Shown here piece after piece: positions 13,554-31,764 of a stretch of DNA of 64,000 nucleotides (its first letter is position 1; every line of letters begins with the position of its first letter). The DNA comes from Escherichia phage Ecwhy_1. Made by a program: the position numbers and the translations under genes. A model generated the notes under the pieces. The model saw only the letters and a list, made by a program, of their open reading frames with translations. It was not told the origin of the DNA and did no database searches. The stretch is from sequence record MH791411.1; one strand, written 5' to 3'.

Positions 13554-13570
13554 AGTGTACCTTTATTTTG

Positions 13571-13643
<73 letters not shown>

Positions 13644-13646
13644 TGA

Positions 13647-13729
<83 letters not shown>

Positions 13730-13780
13730 AGAAGTAAGATAACCAACAAGTCTCCATACTCTTTCGCATTGAGGGGAGGC

Positions 13781-13841
<61 letters not shown>

Positions 13842-13901
13842 GCCAAGTGTCGGCATAGGTGCAGCACTACAAAGTACTTCAAGCTGTTTAGCAGTTTCTT
13901 C

Positions 13902-13983
<82 letters not shown>

Positions 13984-13985
13984 TA

Positions 13986-14111
<126 letters not shown>

Positions 14112-14130
14112 GCATACTCGAAGTACCTCT

Positions 14131-14168
<38 letters not shown>

Positions 14169-14169
14169 A

Positions 14170-14222
<53 letters not shown>

Positions 14223-14267
14223 ATAGGCACACACGGAACTGCTTTATAAGCTACTGAATCGGGAATC

Positions 14268-14798
<531 letters not shown>

Positions 14799-14807
14799 AT
14801 TTGTTTC

Positions 14808-14993
14808 CTATGAAATGAATGTAGCGTTAATTCCCATTATAAATGAAAATATACCAAACAATATCAACCCGATTGGTACAAAGATCATAGATCTATTTCC
14901 ATGTTTCGATAAAAATCGTTCAACTGTAATTAAACGTATTGATATCGGAACCATTATAATAATATACAATATTGAAAGAATTAAAAGTTGCAT
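14808..14993 (-). CDS. hypothetical small membrane protein
   Basis: Six-frame ORF, 61 aa, two hydrophobic segments. Confidence 0.4.
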   Translation of the reverse strand: MQLLILSILYIIIMVPISIRLITVERFLSKHGNRSMIFVPIGLILFGIFSFIMGINATFIS

Positions 14994-15006
14994 TTTAATT
15001 TCCTAT

Positions 15007-15826
<820 letters not shown>

Positions 15827-16189
15827 ATCACCAACTTTAATTAAAAAAAATGGATGGTGACGCTTTTAAACGCCGCTGTTAATTCAGCTTTATAACCACC
15901 CGTTTTAACTTGCCTTTCGGCTACCTTGACGTGGGGCGTACAGGCTACTAAAAGCAACTACTGTAAACATATTTCCACGCCTTACCCTTTTAAATAAAAG
16001 TCCATCCGGTTTTCCAGTTTGGTGAAGGACTGTCACCTCTAGTTTAAACCTGCTAGTCAAGTAATAATTGCCTATCGTCCAATTATCAAACCCGTCTAGG
16101 TTAACATTCACCACTTCCTAGAGTACCAGAGATCTTGTTCTGGATTGCATCGACGTAACTTACACCATATACGTCTGATTGTGGAATTC

Positions 16190-16214
16190 ATTATATCAGT
16201 ACTGAACTATTTAG

Positions 16215-16218
<4 letters not shown>
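16190..16218 (-). promoter_or_regulatory. consensus sigma-70-type promoter TTGACT-N17-TATAAT
   Basis: Exact -35 and -10 hexamers with a 17-nt spacer on the minus strand; followed by about 340 nt without a convincing ORF, then the tRNA cluster. Confidence 0.6.
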
Positions 16219-16640
<422 letters not shown>

Positions 16641-16648
16641 CTTTTTAT

Positions 16649-16809
<161 letters not shown>

Positions 16810-16813
<4 letters not shown>

Positions 16814-16970
16814 ATTCGTACCAGTAGTTCAATTAAGTACATTTCATATGCTGGATCGTTGATAAGTTTATCATACAGATGTGGCTCTGAAATGAATTCC
16901 CAATGATACTTTAGCCATTTACCGATACCCGAATATCTAAAATTAATGTCATTCATCCATTCTTCATGTG

Positions 16971-16974
<4 letters not shown>
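16810..16974 (-). CDS. MTHEEW-family small protein (54 aa), copy B
   Basis: Hand translation: MTHEEWMNDINFRYSGIGKWLKYHWEFISEPHLYDKLINDPAYEMYLIELLVRI; ATGA stop/start overlap with copy C. Confidence 0.5.
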
Positions 16975-17240
<266 letters not shown>

Positions 17241-17243
17241 TTT

Positions 17244-17359
<116 letters not shown>

Positions 17360-26281: not shown

Positions 26282-26661
26282 AGTTTTTTCCAGTCCAATG
26301 AATCGAAATCGATTTGTTCAGGGTTATCAACAGCGACAACTCGTGCATTATGAAGAGTTTCAAAGTAGCCGTTCCACGGTGTTCGTAATGGAACTGTCAC
26401 ATCACCAACTTTAACCAAGAATGAATATGCTGGTGATATTGGGTCAAACCACTCTTTTTGTTTAGCATTTTCGACGATGGTTTCGTGTTCTTTTGTATAG
26501 CAATTATCTTGCTTCATATAAAACACCCAATGCTCTTTTAGGCACTGTAAAGCAGCAACTGCTTCCTCTTTAGAAGACCATTGAATATCAATTGTATTAA
26601 GAACGTCATAACAATTTTCAGTATCACCTGTAGTGTAATGTACTTCAATGCAGTATTTCAT
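26278..26661 (-). CDS. hypothetical protein
   Basis: Six-frame ORF, 127 aa. Confidence 0.5.
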   Translation of the reverse strand: MKYCIEVHYTTGDTENCYDVLNTIDIQWSSKEEAVAALQCLKEHWVFYMKQDNCYTKEHETIVENAKQKEWFDPISPAYSFLVKVGDVTVPLRTPWNGYFETLHNARVVAVDNPEQIDFDSLDWKKL

Positions 26662-27116
26662 TATTCAACACCTTTTAGTAATTTACAAATTTCAATCATA
26701 TGATAATAACATGTATTCCAAAATTGCCCAGTAGTACTACCAACATCATGCACAGTACTTTGTTGGAAAACATATTCATCATTGAACAACTTTTTAATGT
26801 CATCAATGTAAAATTCTGGTTTTGAATCATTATTGTATTCAATACTCGTTTCACCATCTGGATCAAGTGAAATTGATGATATGTCGTGAATTCCTATCGG
26901 ATTTGTTGGATAAATTCTCAACGTAAGAGGATAGAAGTCTGGATCGGTTTCATATGTATATTCGATTATGTAATTACCATCTCCAGTGATTGAGTTATAT
27001 TTAAATGTAGGTTCAAATACATTATGGACATTATAACCTAGTTTATTCATCTCGTTAAGATGTAATAATATTTTATGTAAAGTCCCTAAGACATGAATCA
27101 AATTATCAATTTTCAT
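26661..27116 (-). CDS. F-Q-x-S motif family protein (DEYVFQQSTV)
   Basis: Six-frame ORF, 151 aa. Confidence 0.5.
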   Translation of the reverse strand: MKIDNLIHVLGTLHKILLHLNEMNKLGYNVHNVFEPTFKYNSITGDGNYIIEYTYETDPDFYPLTLRIYPTNPIGIHDISSISLDPDGETSIEYNNDSKPEFYIDDIKKLFNDEYVFQQSTVHDVGSTTGQFWNTCYYHMIEICKLLKGVE

Positions 27117-27655
27117 TTACGATCCTTTGAAAAGTTCAGTTTAAAAGATTTACCAAATTCCATTGTAGCTTTACCCAGATTGTTAATATTTTCTTTCAAC
27201 ATTTCTTGCATCTTTCTTACACTTTCATTCCATGCTTCTTCTTCTTTGCGGAGGATTGGTCGCAATCGTTCCTGAATATCGTTGAAACGTGCATTGACTT
27301 CAACCAATGATTCATATGTGAAATCTTTCATATCGATGATAGTACTACGTTGAAAGAATTCTTCTTCGGATAAATTACTCAAAATGATTTTATCACTACC
27401 AATAGATAATGTCAATTCATCATCTTGATTTTTTTTAATTACAATACGTACAGGTGATTTTATAGTAATGTGAACATCATGATTATTAAAAGTTTCAGTT
27501 TTGTTTGACGTTCTGAATTGTAGTCTTCCGGTTAGTGCGTGTACTGGCATTGGGTTCTTTTTACCAGTAATAACATCTTCCCACGAATCAAGGATATTAT
27601 TAATAATTTTAACATAAGGAACTGTCATATATGCACCTATGAAAAATCCACGCAT
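27113..27655 (-). CDS. F-Q-x-S motif family protein (EEEFFQRSTI) with extended C-terminus
   Basis: Six-frame ORF, 180 aa. Confidence 0.5.
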   Translation of the reverse strand: MRGFFIGAYMTVPYVKIINNILDSWEDVITGKKNPMPVHALTGRLQFRTSNKTETFNNHDVHITIKSPVRIVIKKNQDDELTLSIGSDKIILSNLSEEEFFQRSTIIDMKDFTYESLVEVNARFNDIQERLRPILRKEEEAWNESVRKMQEMLKENINNLGKATMEFGKSFKLNFSKDRK

Positions 27656-27670
27656 AGCGTGGATCTGTAA

Positions 27671-28201
27671 TTAATCGAGTATAGTAACTTCAATCAAACG
27701 AATTTCGATGAATTCGTTTTCAGTTTCCCATGATGAACCTAATTTCTTATTAAGTTCAGTTTTAACATCACTTTTAAATTTTCCCATAGTATTAGGAATA
27801 ATTTGTTTGGTTAGTTTGTCATAACCACAATAAAACATAGGTTTCTCCCTTCGAGATATTAGCTCAACAAAATCCTTTGGATATGCAGGTATATTATGCA
27901 TCACTTCATGAATGCACTCAGTACTTGAATCTTGTACTTTGTACATTACATTAAGTTTACCTTTGAAAGTGCGAATCATATCAACAATAATACCTTTACC
28001 GGATTTAAGTAAAGTTCCATTCTTTGTATGAGAACAATAGAATACCTCATCACCAATATTAGGATAGTACAAATTAAATTCTAATTCTTCCTTTGATGAC
28101 TGACGTTGAAATTTCATTACACGTTCAGTATAGGTGGGGTAGTTCTTCATGTTCAAAAGAATATCTCTCTTAGTAAGTGTGATATAACTGGCATAGTCCA
28201 T
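27671..28201 (-). CDS. hypothetical protein
   Basis: Six-frame ORF, 176 aa; overlaps the methyltransferase gene by about 50 nt. Confidence 0.45.
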   Translation of the reverse strand: MDYASYITLTKRDILLNMKNYPTYTERVMKFQRQSSKEELEFNLYYPNIGDEVFYCSHTKNGTLLKSGKGIIVDMIRTFKGKLNVMYKVQDSSTECIHEVMHNIPAYPKDFVELISRREKPMFYCGYDKLTKQIIPNTMGKFKSDVKTELNKKLGSSWETENEFIEIRLIEVTILD

Positions 28202-29013
28202 CCATTCCCAAGCATTTTGTATGCTTGTGTCTTACTAGACACTTTAAAGAAATCTACAGGAATACCCTGTAATTTACAACATTCTACTACACTTAAGTGT
28301 CTATAGTCAATATTTCTTTTACCATTCTCCAATAGATATTGACGATTAATCGTTGGGTCACGAAACACCAACTGTCGTCTTGATTTATTAAAGTACTGGT
28401 TACAATCACCACCCTTAAAATAGTTAGCATCTATACAGTACGAAGCGGTTCTGTCAGTGTACCAACCATCTTCAATGATATCTTGAAGTTTAGGGGCATT
28501 TGATAATGCAGGTGGTATAAAAAGCTTATCAGTACTGCACCAGTAGTATCTCTGCCTGAAGTGAGGCGTATAATGCTGGGAATTTATCAGTACTGGTGTG
28601 ATTCCTAAAATACTATTAATGTATTCTTTGAAATCTTCCTTCATTTTAACATTCTCGAACAGAAATTGCAAGTTTGGATTTACACTTTTGATGTGCTCAA
28701 AAATATCAACCATAACCAAAAATAACTGTCCACGTATATCATTCAAGCCACCTTGCTTACCAGCAACAGACCAGGCTTGACATGGGAATCCTCCCATGAG
28801 TAAATCTATCTTATCCCACTCAATATCCCATTCTTTCCACTTAGTCACATCACCTAACTGGATAATATCAGGAAAATTCTCGGAAGATTCAGCAATTGCG
28901 TACTTGTCAATTTCAGATGAGTAATATTTTTCAACTGGAATACCTGCATCAGCCAATGCCATATATCCAACGCTCATTCCATTAAAAAGTGACAGTACTC
29001 TGATAGGTTTCAT
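28153..29013 (-). CDS. DNA (cytosine-5)-methyltransferase
   Basis: Motif IV GGFPCQAWSVAG, motif VI FLFENV, motif VIII FRQRYYW, motif X MLGNGWTMPV, motif I-like LFNGMSVG; no restriction endonuclease partner seen. Confidence 0.8.
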   Translation of the reverse strand: MKPIRVLSLFNGMSVGYMALADAGIPVEKYYSSEIDKYAIAESSENFPDIIQLGDVTKWKEWDIEWDKIDLLMGGFPCQAWSVAGKQGGLNDIRGQLFLVMVDIFEHIKSVNPNLQFLFENVKMKEDFKEYINSILGITPVLINSQHYTPHFRQRYYWCSTDKLFIPPALSNAPKLQDIIEDGWYTDRTASYCIDANYFKGGDCNQYFNKSRRQLVFRDPTINRQYLLENGKRNIDYRHLSVVECCKLQGIPVDFFKVSSKTQAYKMLGNGWTMPVISHLLREIFF

Positions 29014-29065
29014 ATAAAATCCTTTTTATATTGTTAAGGTACTATAATACATTATAGCATCTTAT

Positions 29066-29670: not shown

Positions 29671-30126
29671 TTAATTGAACTCGATTTCTGGATAATGATT
29701 ATAGAACATCTCACGTACTGCGTCAAGCTGTTCTTTAAATTTCTCAATGTCATCAAGAGTTAGTACAGTGTTACTAACTGTACTCAACTGAAAAAGTGCC
29801 TCTTCAGTACTGTTTTCTGATAAATCAAATGTACATGATGAATCATCTGTTATAATATTATCACATATTTCAAATGTGTCAATATGAACATCATTGAGTA
29901 GATCACCACTATAATCATTATATATGAACACAAAAATGTATGATGGTTTTTTTATCTCAGTTTCTGACTCATAGGCTACCAAATCATATGTTACGTAACA
30001 TTTAAAGTCAGGTGAATCGTATTCCATAGATACAATTCCTATATCACGATATTGATTCGCTTCACTGATTAAATCCGGTATAGGTGTAATACTAAGTAAA
30101 TGGAAAAACTGTCCTGGATTTAGCAT
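29671..30126 (-). CDS. F-Q-x-S motif family protein (STEEALFQLSTV)
   Basis: Six-frame ORF, 151 aa; first of the tandem array. Confidence 0.55.
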   Translation of the reverse strand: MLNPGQFFHLLSITPIPDLISEANQYRDIGIVSMEYDSPDFKCYVTYDLVAYESETEIKKPSYIFVFIYNDYSGDLLNDVHIDTFEICDNIITDDSSCTFDLSENSTEEALFQLSTVSNTVLTLDDIEKFKEQLDAVREMFYNHYPEIEFN

Positions 30127-30575
30127 TTGATTACCTTCGGGTTTTGCTCTGTGATATCAAACATAGATAGAACGAAATCATTTAGCTTTTCAACACAATT
30201 GATTATAGTGCTTAAATCAGAATAACTAACTGTTAAATTTTTAACAAGAGATTCCTGAAAGTATCCTTCTTCAGTTGAGCAATAACTCACATTTGAGATA
30301 GTCTCATAATGTATATCTTTGCTTGTTTTACATGTTATAATTTCTATTATATCCGATGTTGTGTTATATAATAATATAAATGTTGTTGTTCGTGAATTCT
30401 TATTGTAAAATGCGAGTTCAGTGCTGTCATATGTTTTCTCAATAAGAACATTGTACTCTTCCGAAAACGATGTGGAAATTCTAATTATCTCTTCTGGATC
30501 AGGAACATAAGAGCCATCAAATTTACAAGACAATGCAATTTCAAAATGATTTTTTATTTCATCAATTTTCATCAT
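30120..30575 (-). CDS. F-Q-x-S motif family protein (STEEGYFQESLV)
   Basis: Six-frame ORF, 151 aa; homologous to 29671..30126 over its length (FILLYN / FVFIYN). Confidence 0.55.
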   Translation of the reverse strand: MMKIDEIKNHFEIALSCKFDGSYVPDPEEIIRISTSFSEEYNVLIEKTYDSTELAFYNKNSRTTTFILLYNTTSDIIEIITCKTSKDIHYETISNVSYCSTEEGYFQESLVKNLTVSYSDLSTIINCVEKLNDFVLSMFDITEQNPKVIKC

Positions 30576-30967
30576 AGCTCACCATTTAATTTGCTATTTA
30601 CATATTCTAATGCTTTTTTAACAATGCCAATTTCGGTAACTCCTATTACATTTTTCTCGATTAACGACAATTGAAATAGTTCATCTTCCTCAATATCAAT
30701 ACTATGGGTTCTTGACCAATAAACGTTGAAGTCATATGCATATCGTATTGTATTTTCTTTAATATCAAGTACCAATATAACCATACCATTGTGTAGGTAT
30801 GTCAGTGTTTTTCCGTATATATTAAAAATTAACCTATCTGGTGTACCCAATGGAAGATGAATTATATTTTGTGTAGTTCCAACAATAACAAAATCATTAT
30901 CTATATTTTTATTCAAGTCACCTAGAATGTCATATATAGTAGTCATGTTAATCTTGACCCTCAGCAT
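30572..30967 (-). CDS. F-Q-x-S motif family protein (EEDELFQLSLI)
   Basis: Six-frame ORF, 131 aa. Confidence 0.55.
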   Translation of the reverse strand: MLRVKINMTTIYDILGDLNKNIDNDFVIVGTTQNIIHLPLGTPDRLIFNIYGKTLTYLHNGMVILVLDIKENTIRYAYDFNVYWSRTHSIDIEEDELFQLSLIEKNVIGVTEIGIVKKALEYVNSKLNGEL

Positions 30968-31367
30968 TTCTGATGATTCGCATTACTTCTCTGGATACGT
31001 TGTATACTTTTTTATAGTACTCAAATGTAACTGAACCAAAATCATTAACAGTACTATCCATGAAGAACGATTCTTCGGTGCAATACACACCTGTAATTGA
31101 AACATGCTCATGATGGAATTTAGCATCTTTCCAGTAACGGAATTCGAAAATAAATTGCCCGTCATGACCAACCCTACAACACTCAGCACGGTCACTGTCT
31201 ACGCAGCTAATCACAATATCCCTTTCGGAGTCATACCAGATATTTCCAATATTTGTTTCAATAACTGCATAATCAATTTTTGTTGAATTGGGAATTACAC
31301 CTTTTTTTACCAGTACTAGACTGGTATTATCAATATCAAGTAAACTTACCATATCAACTCCCCACAA
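30948..31367 (-). CDS. F-Q/M-x-S motif family protein (variant TEESFFMDSTV)
   Basis: Six-frame ORF, 139 aa. Confidence 0.5.
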   Translation of the reverse strand: MWGVDMVSLLDIDNTSLVLVKKGVIPNSTKIDYAVIETNIGNIWYDSERDIVISCVDSDRAECCRVGHDGQFIFEFRYWKDAKFHHEHVSITGVYCTEESFFMDSTVNDFGSVTFEYYKKVYNVSREVMRIIRNAEGQD

Positions 31368-31764
31368 TTACTGTGTTTTTGATTTCTAACAATTCACTAT
31401 ACATCTTCTTCAATTGTACAATATCTTCATATAAAATACCACCCATATCATCAATCAAAGAACGTTGGAATAGTGATTCATCTGACTGTATCGTGTCCAA
31501 ATCAGAAATTTTCAATACTGTAACTGGGTTTAGGGTGTTTACAATAAGTTTGTTTGTGTATGGGATGTATGTGATCTTGATATTCATTTCCGAATCAAGG
31601 GCATACAACCTCAAAACAGACAAATCACCACAAAGTTGGATTTTTGGTTCATCAAACTCATCAGACCACCACATAGTACTAGTCATATAATTGACGTGTT
31701 GGTTCAAATGTGATATATCCAAATCGAAATAATATTTTAGTTCATTGTGTAAATCTAAACTCAT
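31354..31764 (-). CDS. F-Q-x-S motif family protein (SDESLFQRSLI)
   Basis: Six-frame ORF, 136 aa. Confidence 0.55.
   Translation of the reverse strand: MSLDLHNELKYYFDLDISHLNQHVNYMTSTMWWSDEFDEPKIQLCGDLSVLRLYALDSEMNIKITYIPYTNKLIVNTLNPVTVLKISDLDTIQSDESLFQRSLIDDMGGILYEDIVQLKKMYSELLEIKNTVIVGS

Follow-up and report, generated by a model that had tools for sequence, protein, structure and literature searches.

A predicted stand-alone cytosine-C5 DNA methyltransferase of DNMT3-like build in an Escherichia coli jumbo phage

Jumbo phages of the Asteriusvirus or 'Rak2-like' type, phAPEC6 among them, carry an annotated DNA cytosine methyltransferase, and the enzyme of this clade has already been described in terms of 'protective methylation' (PMC7247149, PMC12805682, PMC5259590, PMC3622015). 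We analysed the copy in a 64 000-nucleotide stretch of Escherichia phage Ecwhy_1 (MH791411.1; hereafter the window), which is 99.6% identical to the genome of fEgEco12 and represents an Asteriusvirus-type virulent jumbo coliphage. An identical (100%) protein occurs in six phage records (fEgEco12, WPEC3/5, BF17, vB_Ec-M-J and EC.P1), and public records name it 'DNA (cytosine) methyltransferase' in several phages. The fEgEco12 copy is Gp455 (XBS49537.1), that of 121Q is gp91 and that of Hallingskeid is CDS0275; orthologues are 95–96% identical in 121Q and PBECO4, 74–77% in CBB, GAP32, Hallingskeid and XbC2, and 63% in RaK2. These enzymes agree with that of the window in length, target-recognition domain (TRD) and kind of genome region, with no substantive difference, although the RaK2 copy, unlike the window enzyme, has an altered motif IV (SPCT) and an insertion in the catalytic loop. 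The gene is thus already known, being annotated in GenBank and discussed in papers, and is in itself of little weight as one more annotated orphan cytosine methylase to which several papers assign an anti-restriction role. Its interest lies in being a natural minimal C5-methyltransferase with a DNMT3-like build, on the specificity of which two published data sets disagree; the composition of the genome that carries it is the more striking feature.

The open reading frame fills positions 28153–29013 of the minus strand exactly and is complete from the ATG (29013–29011) to the stop codon, which is included in the end coordinate; it appears in the ORF list of the window as a protein of 286 residues. 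This protein matches PF00145 (E = 4.7e-37, 128.6 bits against a cut-off of 22), TIGR00675 (E = 1.2e-33, 117.2 bits against a cut-off of 100.65) and phrog_116 (E = 1.2e-58). The AF2 model (pLDDT 91.8, pTM 0.89) shows a class I methyltransferase fold with a small TRD lobe. The dN/dS ratio against the UE-S1, CBB and RaK2 orthologues is 0.08–0.12, and the gene is under strong purifying selection.

Motifs I–III, VIII, IX and X follow one another in canonical order, with the TRD between VIII and IX. Invariance of residues was judged in an alignment of 41 homologous sequences, in which the catalytic residues are all invariant. The AdoMet-binding loop of motif I (FNGMSVG, residues 10–16; 28966–28986, on the minus strand like all coding features below) contains the invariant Phe10, Gly12 and Ser14 and is a DNMT3-like variant of FxGxG that aligns with 'LSLFDGIATGY' of DNMT3B; the AdoMet-binding region further includes SSEID (residues 32–36) and GDV (residues 54–56). 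Motif IV (GGFPCQAWS, residues 74–82; 28768–28794) holds the invariant Pro77 and Cys78, the latter being the catalytic cysteine (codon 28780–28782), and all three residues of the ENV of motif VI (Glu120, Asn121 and Val122; 28648–28656) are invariant. Motif VIII (RQRYYW, residues 153–158; 28540–28557) holds QRY and the invariant Arg153, Arg155, Tyr157 and Trp158, and aligns with 'RARYFW' of DNMT3B. Motif IX (RHLSVVECCKLQG, residues 238–250; 28264–28302) has Arg238, Leu240 and Glu244 invariant, as are Gly269, Asn270 and Gly271 in the GNGW core of motif X (residues 269–272; 28198–28209). All four motifs named in a preliminary description made from the sequence alone (PCQ, ENV, QRY and GNGW) are therefore present. 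The short TRD that it had proposed is also borne out: as delimited in alignments of homologues, the region covers residues 159–237 (28303–28539), about 79 residues, in a protein no longer than the bare DNMT3 catalytic domain. Its conserved block, DRxxSYCIDANYFKGGxxNQYFNKSRRQ, is followed by a minimal variable segment, at which up to ∼135 extra residues are inserted in more distant homologues. In the UE-S1 methyltransferase, a precursor of 626 residues, an intein is inserted immediately before the catalytic cysteine of motif IV, and an intein at this cysteine is present in some relatives.

The closest solved relatives are the catalytic domains of DNMT3A and DNMT3B, both by sequence (E ∼1e-23, with DNMT3B aligned over residues 2–282) and by fold (TM 0.77–0.80, E ∼1e-24 in Foldseek with the AF2 model); among the structural matches listed, 50 of 50 are DNMT3-family enzymes. 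These domains have about the same length (∼285 residues), an equally short TRD and common variants of motifs I (LSLF-x-G-x-x-x-GY), VIII (R-x-RY-x-W) and X (G-x-x-W-x-x-PVI-x-HL). Identity to the phage protein is only 25–28%, however, and the TRD sequence is not conserved between them; the phage protein has neither the PWWP and ADD domains nor a DNMT3L partner, consists of the catalytic domain alone (286 residues) and has a catalytic loop of bacterial type (PCQAWSVAGKQ...RG.LF). It does not belong to the eukaryotic DNMT3 family, the likeness being one of fold and motif variants only. The model thus depicts a minimal, single-domain enzyme that corresponds in size and shape to the catalytic domain of DNMT3.

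Likeness to the bacterial enzymes is more partial. E. coli Dcm and M.EcoRII have their chemistry in common with the phage enzyme and possibly also their target (CCWGG). The Dcm subfamily profile PRK10458, with 472 positions compared with the 286 residues of the phage enzyme, scores only 20.9 bits against a cut-off of 710 and aligns with residues 68–123 only, and in the Dcm structures 3lx6 and 3me5 motif IV alone aligns. A vsr-like gene 3' of the methyltransferase, as in the Dcm/EcoRII type, was not found in the phage by Pfam. As judged from sequence, the phage methyltransferase is not a Dcm orthologue. Motifs I–VI align well with those of M.HhaI and M.HaeIII (E ∼1e-15 to 1e-17), which have the same type of catalytic loop; the alignment covers only the ∼120 N-terminal residues for M.HhaI and extends to about residue 204, in two stretches, for M.HaeIII. 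Their TRDs are unrelated to that of the phage enzyme, which has no detectable cognate endonuclease, and the M.HhaI site, GCGC, has no copy in the phage genome sample described below.

The preliminary description had also seen no restriction endonuclease partner nearby, and the flanking genes agree with this. None of the nine flanking ORFs (four downstream and five upstream) has a Pfam match, and these nine and one further upstream match only PHROGs of unknown function. The neighbours of the methyltransferase differ between genera, without synteny. Distant homologues are likewise solitary and lie in phage replication or structural modules in the two homologue contigs inspected. No homologue was found linked to a known restriction enzyme; plasmid matches are ∼30% identical or less, with the exception of a partial match from Photobacterium damselae (54% identity over 71% of the query). 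With no nuclease partner detectable by profile search and neighbours that are non-syntenic across genera, the designation 'orphan' holds. Family scores, motifs, predicted fold, purifying selection and the lack of a conserved or recognisable nuclease neighbour all agree, and the proposed orphan C5-cytosine DNA methyltransferase of a phage is confirmed, on sequence evidence, as the product of an intact stand-alone gene of an E. coli jumbo phage.

Several candidate expression signals can be read from the sequence. The ATG is preceded, at a distance of 6 nt, by a Shine–Dalgarno-like AAGGA (29020–29024, minus strand). Within the 52-bp spacer on the 5' side of the gene there is a perfect 7-bp inverted repeat, CTATAAT-AC-ATTATAG (29042–29057), that gives TATAAT on both strands and may be a −10 element or an operator; as it has no −35 match, the promoter scan did not call it. 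A σ70-like promoter (TTGACG-17-TATAAT, 11 of 12 consensus matches; 29698–29726, minus strand) lies ∼700 bp upstream and precedes, on the same strand, two small ORFs (29656–29396 and 29356–29066) and then the methyltransferase. It is no more than a match to the consensus, and such sites are no more numerous in the region than in shuffles. The CBB paper lists the cytosine methylase of the clade among CBB_72, CBB_157 and CBB_399, of which only CBB_399 lies within the predicted early block, CBB_390–546 (PMC5259590). A GAP32_390 cross-reference in the CBB record suggests that CBB_399 is the orthologue of the window methyltransferase, which is probably located in an early part of the genome transcribed by the host RNA polymerase.

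We consider it moderately probable that the enzyme is an active, solitary C5-methyltransferase of phage DNA that protects against restriction, with CCWGG as its most likely target. By the usual mechanism, the cytosine would be flipped out, attacked at C6 by Cys78 (PCQ motif) and protonated at N3 by Glu120 (ENV motif), and replicating phage DNA would be methylated at a short motif in an AdoMet-dependent manner. The methylated progeny genomes would then resist restriction enzymes that cut the unmethylated motif. We infer the protective role as is standard for such enzymes and as the literature does for this clade. With a CCWGG target the enzyme would share the specificity of host Dcm, and the site at which EcoRII-type enzymes act, and would do so through a TRD unrelated to that of Dcm. 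The case for it comes from relatives: when native DNA of the Erwinia phages Hallingskeid and Kaldavass was compared with amplified DNA by nanopore sequencing, the only marks found were 6mA in GATC and 5mC in CCWGG, with TGCAT in addition in Kaldavass (PMC11780129). Hallingskeid has two methyltransferases, one of which, the orthologue CDS0275, is 76.6% identical and has the same TRD; the methylomes of these same-TRD relatives make CCWGG the best candidate. Its authors note that host methylases could explain both the GATC and the CCWGG marks (PMC11780129). In the window CCWGG is not avoided (39 observed, 39.1 expected from synonymous-codon shuffles); the related sites CCSGG and GGWCC are depleted. 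In favour of this target, the accessible text of the RaK2 paper also states that RaK2 DNA was cut by no enzymes other than those that tolerate Dam, Dcm, CpG or EcoKI methylation (PMC3622015).

Other data fit CCWGG less well. In suppliers' data, dcm-type methylation prevents cutting by SexAI (ACCWGGT), and CpG methylation that by ClaI and NruI. In the accessible part of the fEgEco12 report, virion DNA gave the predicted patterns with all three enzymes (PMC13070987), which, the protein being identical, argues against complete CCWGG or CpG methylation there; for the same reason the ClaI and NruI digests lend no support to a DNMT3-like CpG specificity of the phage enzyme. The accessible text of the RaK2 paper mentions bisulfite evidence, as data not shown, for methylated 'CmpG' (PMC3622015); as far as that text goes, this counts against CCWGG, which is not a CpG motif. 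The wider family also appears to be heterogeneous rather than uniformly CCWGG-specific, since the site is strongly avoided in 17 of 63 IMG/VR phage loci with 35–51%-identical homologues, among them several phages with homologues of 37–47% identity. Across these 63 loci, avoidance bears no clean relation to TRD length. A footprint of 5mC deamination did not emerge either: C/T differences between the window and UE-S1 range from 0.05 to 0.19 by trinucleotide context, with none outstanding.

The genome in which the enzyme resides has undergone an unusually complete purge of palindromes, and the site of the enzyme would show how protection is divided between avoidance and methylation; under the CCWGG reading, methylation would complement the main anti-restriction strategy, the near-total loss of GC-rich palindromes. 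In 176 kb of sequence sampled across four clade members there is no GCGC, where ∼187 copies are expected. GC-rich hexamer palindromes are almost all purged, except for CACGTG (29 copies across the four phages) and GTGCAC (33 copies), for each of which ∼19 are expected; for the remaining 26 palindromes of four or more G/C, 45 copies were counted in all where ∼465 are expected. By synonymous-codon shuffles and composition models, the spared sites are CCWGG, GCWGC, ACGT, TGCA, CATG, CACGTG and GTGCAC. Reading the target from these statistics was tried and abandoned, as several sites are spared and none is singled out.

The escape of CACGTG and GTGCAC, alone among GC-rich hexamer palindromes and in all four clade members, lends some weight to a rather unlikely reading, in which the enzyme is an active orphan DNA methyltransferase with a rarer motif: CACGTG, another CpG site or a CAC/GTG half-site. 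Such a site, if present only a few times in each genome, could have been missed by motif discovery in the relatives; CACNNNGTG is also spared and GACNNNGTC is absent. The 'CmpG' reported in the accessible text on RaK2 would fit CA(m5C)GTG (PMC3622015), DNMT3A and DNMT3B, the closest solved relatives, are CpG enzymes, and, by our own reading of the recognition sequences, no enzyme named in the accessible part of the fEgEco12 report tests CACGTG or GTGCAC. However, one enzyme could account for both palindromes only by reading CAC alone, and so frequent a motif should have appeared in the Hallingskeid and Kaldavass nanopore analysis (PMC11780129). The reading of 6 bp by a 79-residue TRD would be unusual, CACGTG and GTGCAC may have been spared simply because enzymes that cut them are rare in the hosts, and the C/T substitution rates contain no outstanding hot context.

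The purge can also be read in the opposite direction. The recognition site (GCGC, for example, or another absent palindrome) would then have been removed from the phage, and an early enzyme would methylate the bacterial chromosome, leaving no mark on phage DNA and serving a purpose other than self-protection. We regard this as improbable, although if true it would be of some consequence, as such an enzyme might blind or mislead host systems that depend on methylation, in defence or gene control, or interfere with chromosome function. The complete loss of GCGC from the four clade genomes, the strong purifying selection and the location in a putative early, host-takeover region are consistent with it. 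It would also reconcile the published data if the host makes the CCWGG mark in the relatives, with no dcm- or CpG-type block in fEgEco12 as far as the accessible part of that report goes. Nothing positive points to such a specificity, however, the TRD being unlike that of M.HhaI, with which the N-terminal half alone aligns, and we know of no precedent. A simpler account of the same facts is that sites are normally either avoided or methylated, each way of protection serving different sites.

The other departure in composition is an excess of AGTACT, which is enriched 7–12-fold throughout the genome and across the clade. The window contains 149 copies compared with 53.6 ± 6.1 in synonymous-codon shuffles (z = 15.8). 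It had been described as conspicuous in intergenic regions; the abundance is real, but the intergenic specificity is not, as 131 of the 149 copies lie inside ORFs, at a density of 2.29 per kb compared with 2.64 per kb outside. All three reading frames are used and the distribution along genes is flat. That AGTACT (or GTAC) is the target, with the phage genome marked at ∼2.3 sites per kb, is very doubtful. The enrichment is common to the enzyme carriers RaK2, CBB and Hallingskeid, and it is absent from PA5oct (30 kb sampled), the paper on which mentions no methyltransferase. This co-occurrence is nevertheless inseparable from shared ancestry, phages with 35–51%-identical homologues show no AGTACT enrichment, and restriction pressure would produce the opposite of enrichment. 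In Hallingskeid there are 159 copies in 41 kb (more than 1000 per genome by extrapolation), yet only GATC and CCWGG are modified, and AGTACT is not among the modified motifs of either relative (PMC11780129). The caution of the preliminary description about linking the palindrome to the enzyme was thus well placed, and AGTACT is probably not the methyltransferase target.

A 176-residue ORF (27671–28201, minus strand) overlaps the 3' end of the methyltransferase gene by 49 nt, and novel restriction nucleases can escape profile searches, as restriction enzymes often do. That the methyltransferase is half of a restriction–modification system, with this same-strand neighbour as an unrecognised nuclease, is nonetheless hard to credit. 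The ORF has no Pfam match, and hence none to the Pfam Vsr family, contains no recognisable nuclease and belongs only to phrog_28599, a group of unknown function. It is absent beside the methyltransferase in CBB and Hallingskeid and is represented in RaK2 by a weak match of 52 residues, whereas the methyltransferase is conserved across the clade without it. A DNMT2-like RNA methyltransferase, acting on the many tRNAs of the phage rather than on DNA, is exceedingly improbable: although the PF00145 fold includes DNMT2, one orthologue is labelled 'DNMT2' in a GenBank record and six tRNAs are encoded in the window, tRNA-Asp is not in this set, DNMT2/TRDMT1 chains align only with the N-terminal half (E = 6.5e-10 to 5.9e-6) in contrast to the full-length DNMT3 matches and the stronger M.HhaI and M.HaeIII matches, and the listed structural matches are all of the DNMT3 family.

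The AGTACT excess, which is spread evenly, shows no dependence on reading frame and appears to be unmethylated, points to an undescribed function at the DNA level in these jumbo phages. A role as promoter or terminator was considered and rejected on account of the equal density inside and outside ORFs, the use of all frames and the flat position along genes. Origin by deamination of AGCGCT was likewise rejected, since an enzyme strictly confined to GCGC would go no further than one conversion and GCGC sites, at their expected number, would be far too few to yield the excess.

The methyltransferase gene occupies positions 28153–29013 on the minus strand as an ATG-initiated open reading frame (ORF) of 286 residues, with an AAGGA ribosome-binding sequence 6 nt upstream, and is present in one copy in the window. 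The four motifs quoted in the preliminary description (PCQ, ENV, QRY and GNGW) all lie in exactly this ORF, within GGFPCQAWS (residues 74–82), ENV (120–122), RQRYYW (153–158) and GNGW (269–272), and its target-recognition region (TRD) was fairly called short, as ~79 residues separate motifs VIII and IX. The protein matches PF00145 of Pfam (E = 4.7e-37, 128.6 bits, cut-off 22), TIGR00675 'dcm' (1.2e-33, 117.2 bits, cut-off 100.65) and phrog_116 'DNA methyltransferase' (1.2e-58). The original observation is confirmed and its interpretation as a C5-cytosine methyltransferase is supported. The catalytic residues are all invariant in an alignment of 41 homologues, and dN/dS is 0.11 against the orthologue of UE-S1 (exteins), 0.08 against CBB and 0.12 against RaK2. 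The gene is thus intact, and purifying selection acts on it.

The gene is already known and its novelty is nil, because the identical protein is present in public records and several papers list it. Six GenBank phage records contain a 100% identical product, and 48 public contigs carry the exact sequence under the name 'DNA cytosine methyltransferase'. Over the 3 kb around the gene, identity is 99.6% to Escherichia phage fEgEco12 and ~89% to 121Q and PBECO4, which are jumbo myoviruses of 350–385 kb in the genus Asteriusvirus. Protein identity is 95–96% for 121Q and PBECO4, 74–77% for CBB, GAP32, XbC2, Hallingskeid and Kaldavass, and 63% for Klebsiella phage RaK2. The papers on phAPEC6 (PMC7247149), UE-S1 (PMC12805682), CBB (PMC5259590), Sharanji and RaK2 (PMC3622015) list the enzyme and read it as protective methylation, and a jumbo-phage review notes 'DCMs' of this kind in the Rak2-like/Asteriusvirus group.

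The orthologous ORF of Escherichia phage UE-S1 (L083:9001–10881) is longer, at 626 residues, and contains an in-frame insert of 340 residues (CFPAGT...VVHN) between GGFP and the catalytic cysteine of the PCQ motif. Because it comprises Hint and LAGLIDADG (homing endonuclease) domains, the insert is an intein, for which the catalytic nucleophile of the enzyme serves as the +1 residue. The UE-S1 paper (PMC12805682) does not mention an intein. The ph0011 and TH47 sequences give a split match to the methyltransferase, as in UE-S1, and these orthologues probably also bear an intein.

Among solved structures, the closest in sequence are the human DNMT3B and DNMT3A catalytic domains (E ~1e-23), the DNMT3B alignment spanning residues 2–282. 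M.HhaI and M.HaeIII rank next (1e-15 to 1e-17), aligning with the N-terminal ~120 residues only and to about residue 204, respectively, and DNMT2 is more remote (6.5e-10 to 5.9e-6). An AlphaFold2 model built from 41 homologues is confident (mean pLDDT 91.8, pTM 0.89), and a Foldseek search of the PDB places the DNMT3A/3B/3C catalytic domains at the top (TM 0.77–0.80, E down to 3e-24). DNMT3-type variants are seen in motif I (LSLFNGMSVGY), motif VIII (RQRYYW) and motif X (GNGWTMPVISHL), whereas the catalytic loop (PCQAWSVAGKQGGLNDIRGQLF) is of bacterial type. The TRD consists of a block conserved family-wide (DRxxSYCIDANYxKGGxxxQYFxKSRRQ) and a variable segment that is minimal in Rak2-like phages and up to ~135 residues longer elsewhere. 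A Dcm orthologue was rejected, since the score against the Dcm profile PRK10458 (20.9 bits) is far below the cut-off of 710. The RaK2 orthologue (L002:10001–10885) has SPCT in place of FPCQ in motif IV and an insertion of ~8 residues in the catalytic loop.

No restriction endonuclease partner had been seen near the gene, and the wider search agrees. None of the four ORFs downstream and five ORFs upstream of the gene has a Pfam match; for these nine and one ORF further upstream, the only matches are to PHROGs of unknown function. Neighbours vary among genera: a 176-residue ORF overlapping the 3' end of the gene by 49 nt does not adjoin it in CBB or Hallingskeid and has only a weak 52-residue match in RaK2, and the sole neighbour kept across genera is a small upstream ORF of 86 residues, within 1–3 kb. 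More distant homologues, in the two contigs inspected, are both solitary and lie in phage modules. We accept the enzyme as an orphan, though unknown nucleases can escape profile searches. The gene sits among small paralogous genes arranged in tandem (26661–27655 and 29671–31764, minus strand), whose products of ~130–180 residues share the motif acidic-x-x-F/L-F-Q-x-S-x-V/I (also E-x-x-F-Q-x-S-x-V/I) and all match PHROGs of unknown function, with no Pfam match.

CCWGG is the likeliest target, at somewhat less than an even chance. The best evidence is published: nanopore comparison of native with amplified DNA showed only 6mA at GATC and 5mC at CCWGG in Hallingskeid and Kaldavass, with TGCAT also modified in Kaldavass (PMC11780129). 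Hallingskeid has two methyltransferases, one of which (CDS0275) is the orthologue, 76.6% identical and with nearly the same TRD; with one enzyme per motif, CCWGG falls to the C5 enzyme. Against this, the authors note that host methylases could account for the marks (PMC11780129). The window composition agrees with this target: CCWGG occurs 39 times, exactly at expectation (39.1 ± 3.9 in synonymous-codon shuffles), CCSGG occurs twice against 20.7 expected, and GGWCC is also depleted. The methyltransferase of fEgEco12 is identical to that of the window. SexAI does not cut at dcm-methylated sites, and CpG methylation prevents cutting by ClaI and NruI. CCWGG is placed in doubt because fEgEco12 DNA is reported to yield the predicted patterns with SexAI, and likewise with ClaI, NruI, HindIII and others (PMC13070987). 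The lack of orthology to Dcm also counts against CCWGG, as does RaK2. This phage, the sole clade member for which bisulfite evidence of 5mC has been reported (unpublished), is described as methylated at 'CmpG' and as cut only by methylation-tolerant enzymes, in both cases with data unshown (PMC3622015).

Palindromes are heavily purged. GCGC is absent from the window (59 expected) and from all 176 kb sampled across the window, RaK2, CBB and Hallingskeid (~187 expected). Hexamer palindromes containing four or more G/C number 28, of which 26 sum to two copies in the window (~153 expected) and 45 in the four phages (~465 expected). The remaining two, CACGTG and GTGCAC, reach or exceed the expected count in each of the four phages (29 and 33 copies in total, ~19 expected for each). 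CACNNNGTG is likewise spared and GACNNNGTC absent; in the window, RaK2, CBB and Hallingskeid, CACN3GTG is spared, GACN3GTC is absent and GATC occurs about half as often as expected. PA5oct, credited with hypermodification systems in a jumbo-phage review, shows no purge (GC-rich hexamer palindromes 55 versus 61 expected, GCGC 28 versus 21), so the statistic does not simply reflect the method. On this evidence the phage seems to rely chiefly on removing sites, with the methyltransferase as an addition. A different, rarer target motif, suggested by the two spared hexamers, is a reading that we consider rather unlikely. That the enzyme leaves no mark on phage DNA is improbable, and the probability left over by these readings and CCWGG is spread among minor rivals.

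AGTACT had been described as conspicuous in intergenic regions. The excess is genuine and much larger than that description suggests: the window holds 149 copies, whereas base composition predicts ~22 and within-gene synonymous-codon shuffles give 53.6 ± 6.1 (z = 15.8). It is not intergenic (2.29 per kb in ORFs versus 2.64 outside). All three reading frames are used (58, 28 and 45), the profile along genes is flat, copies are spaced a little more evenly than at random (CV 0.81), and 60% of sites are conserved in UE-S1, compared with 41% for all hexamers. Over-representation is 7–12-fold in the window, RaK2 (46 versus 7 expected), CBB (158 versus 17) and Hallingskeid (159 versus 13), and is common to four genera of Rak2-like phages; CAGTACTG occurs 33 times in the window (0.7 expected) and 53 times in Hallingskeid (0.5 expected). 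The excess is absent from PA5oct, a more distant Pseudomonas relative (1 versus 10 expected), and from 60-odd unrelated phages with 35–51%-identical methylases. A link to the enzyme, about which the preliminary description was rightly cautious, is highly improbable, because AGTACT is missing from the modified motifs reported for Hallingskeid (PMC11780129), despite an extrapolated >1000 sites per genome.

A sigma-70-like match (TTGACG-17-TATAAT, 11/12) lies at 29726–29698 on the gene strand, upstream of two small ORFs that precede the methyltransferase; matches of this type are no commoner in the region than in shuffles. The CBB paper lists CBB_72, CBB_157 and CBB_399 as adenine and cytosine methylases, and its predicted early block, CBB_390–546, takes in only CBB_399 of the three (PMC5259590). 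The CBB record cross-references GAP32_390, from which we infer that CBB_399 is the orthologue. Early transcription is plausible, given the promoter-like match and the location of CBB_399. The 52 bp spacer just upstream of the start codon contains a perfect inverted repeat (CTATAAT-AC-ATTATAG, 29042–29057), with TATAAT legible on either strand, a possible −10 element or operator. By a crude ORF call, 111 of the 117 long ORFs in the window lie on the minus strand, and ~89% of the sequence is coding; this long unidirectional block of small genes is consistent with the CBB 'early region'. Six tRNA genes at 13570–17333 (minus strand; two Thr-tgt, Asn-gtt, Met-cat, Ser-gct and Ser-tga) form a cluster typical of the clade.
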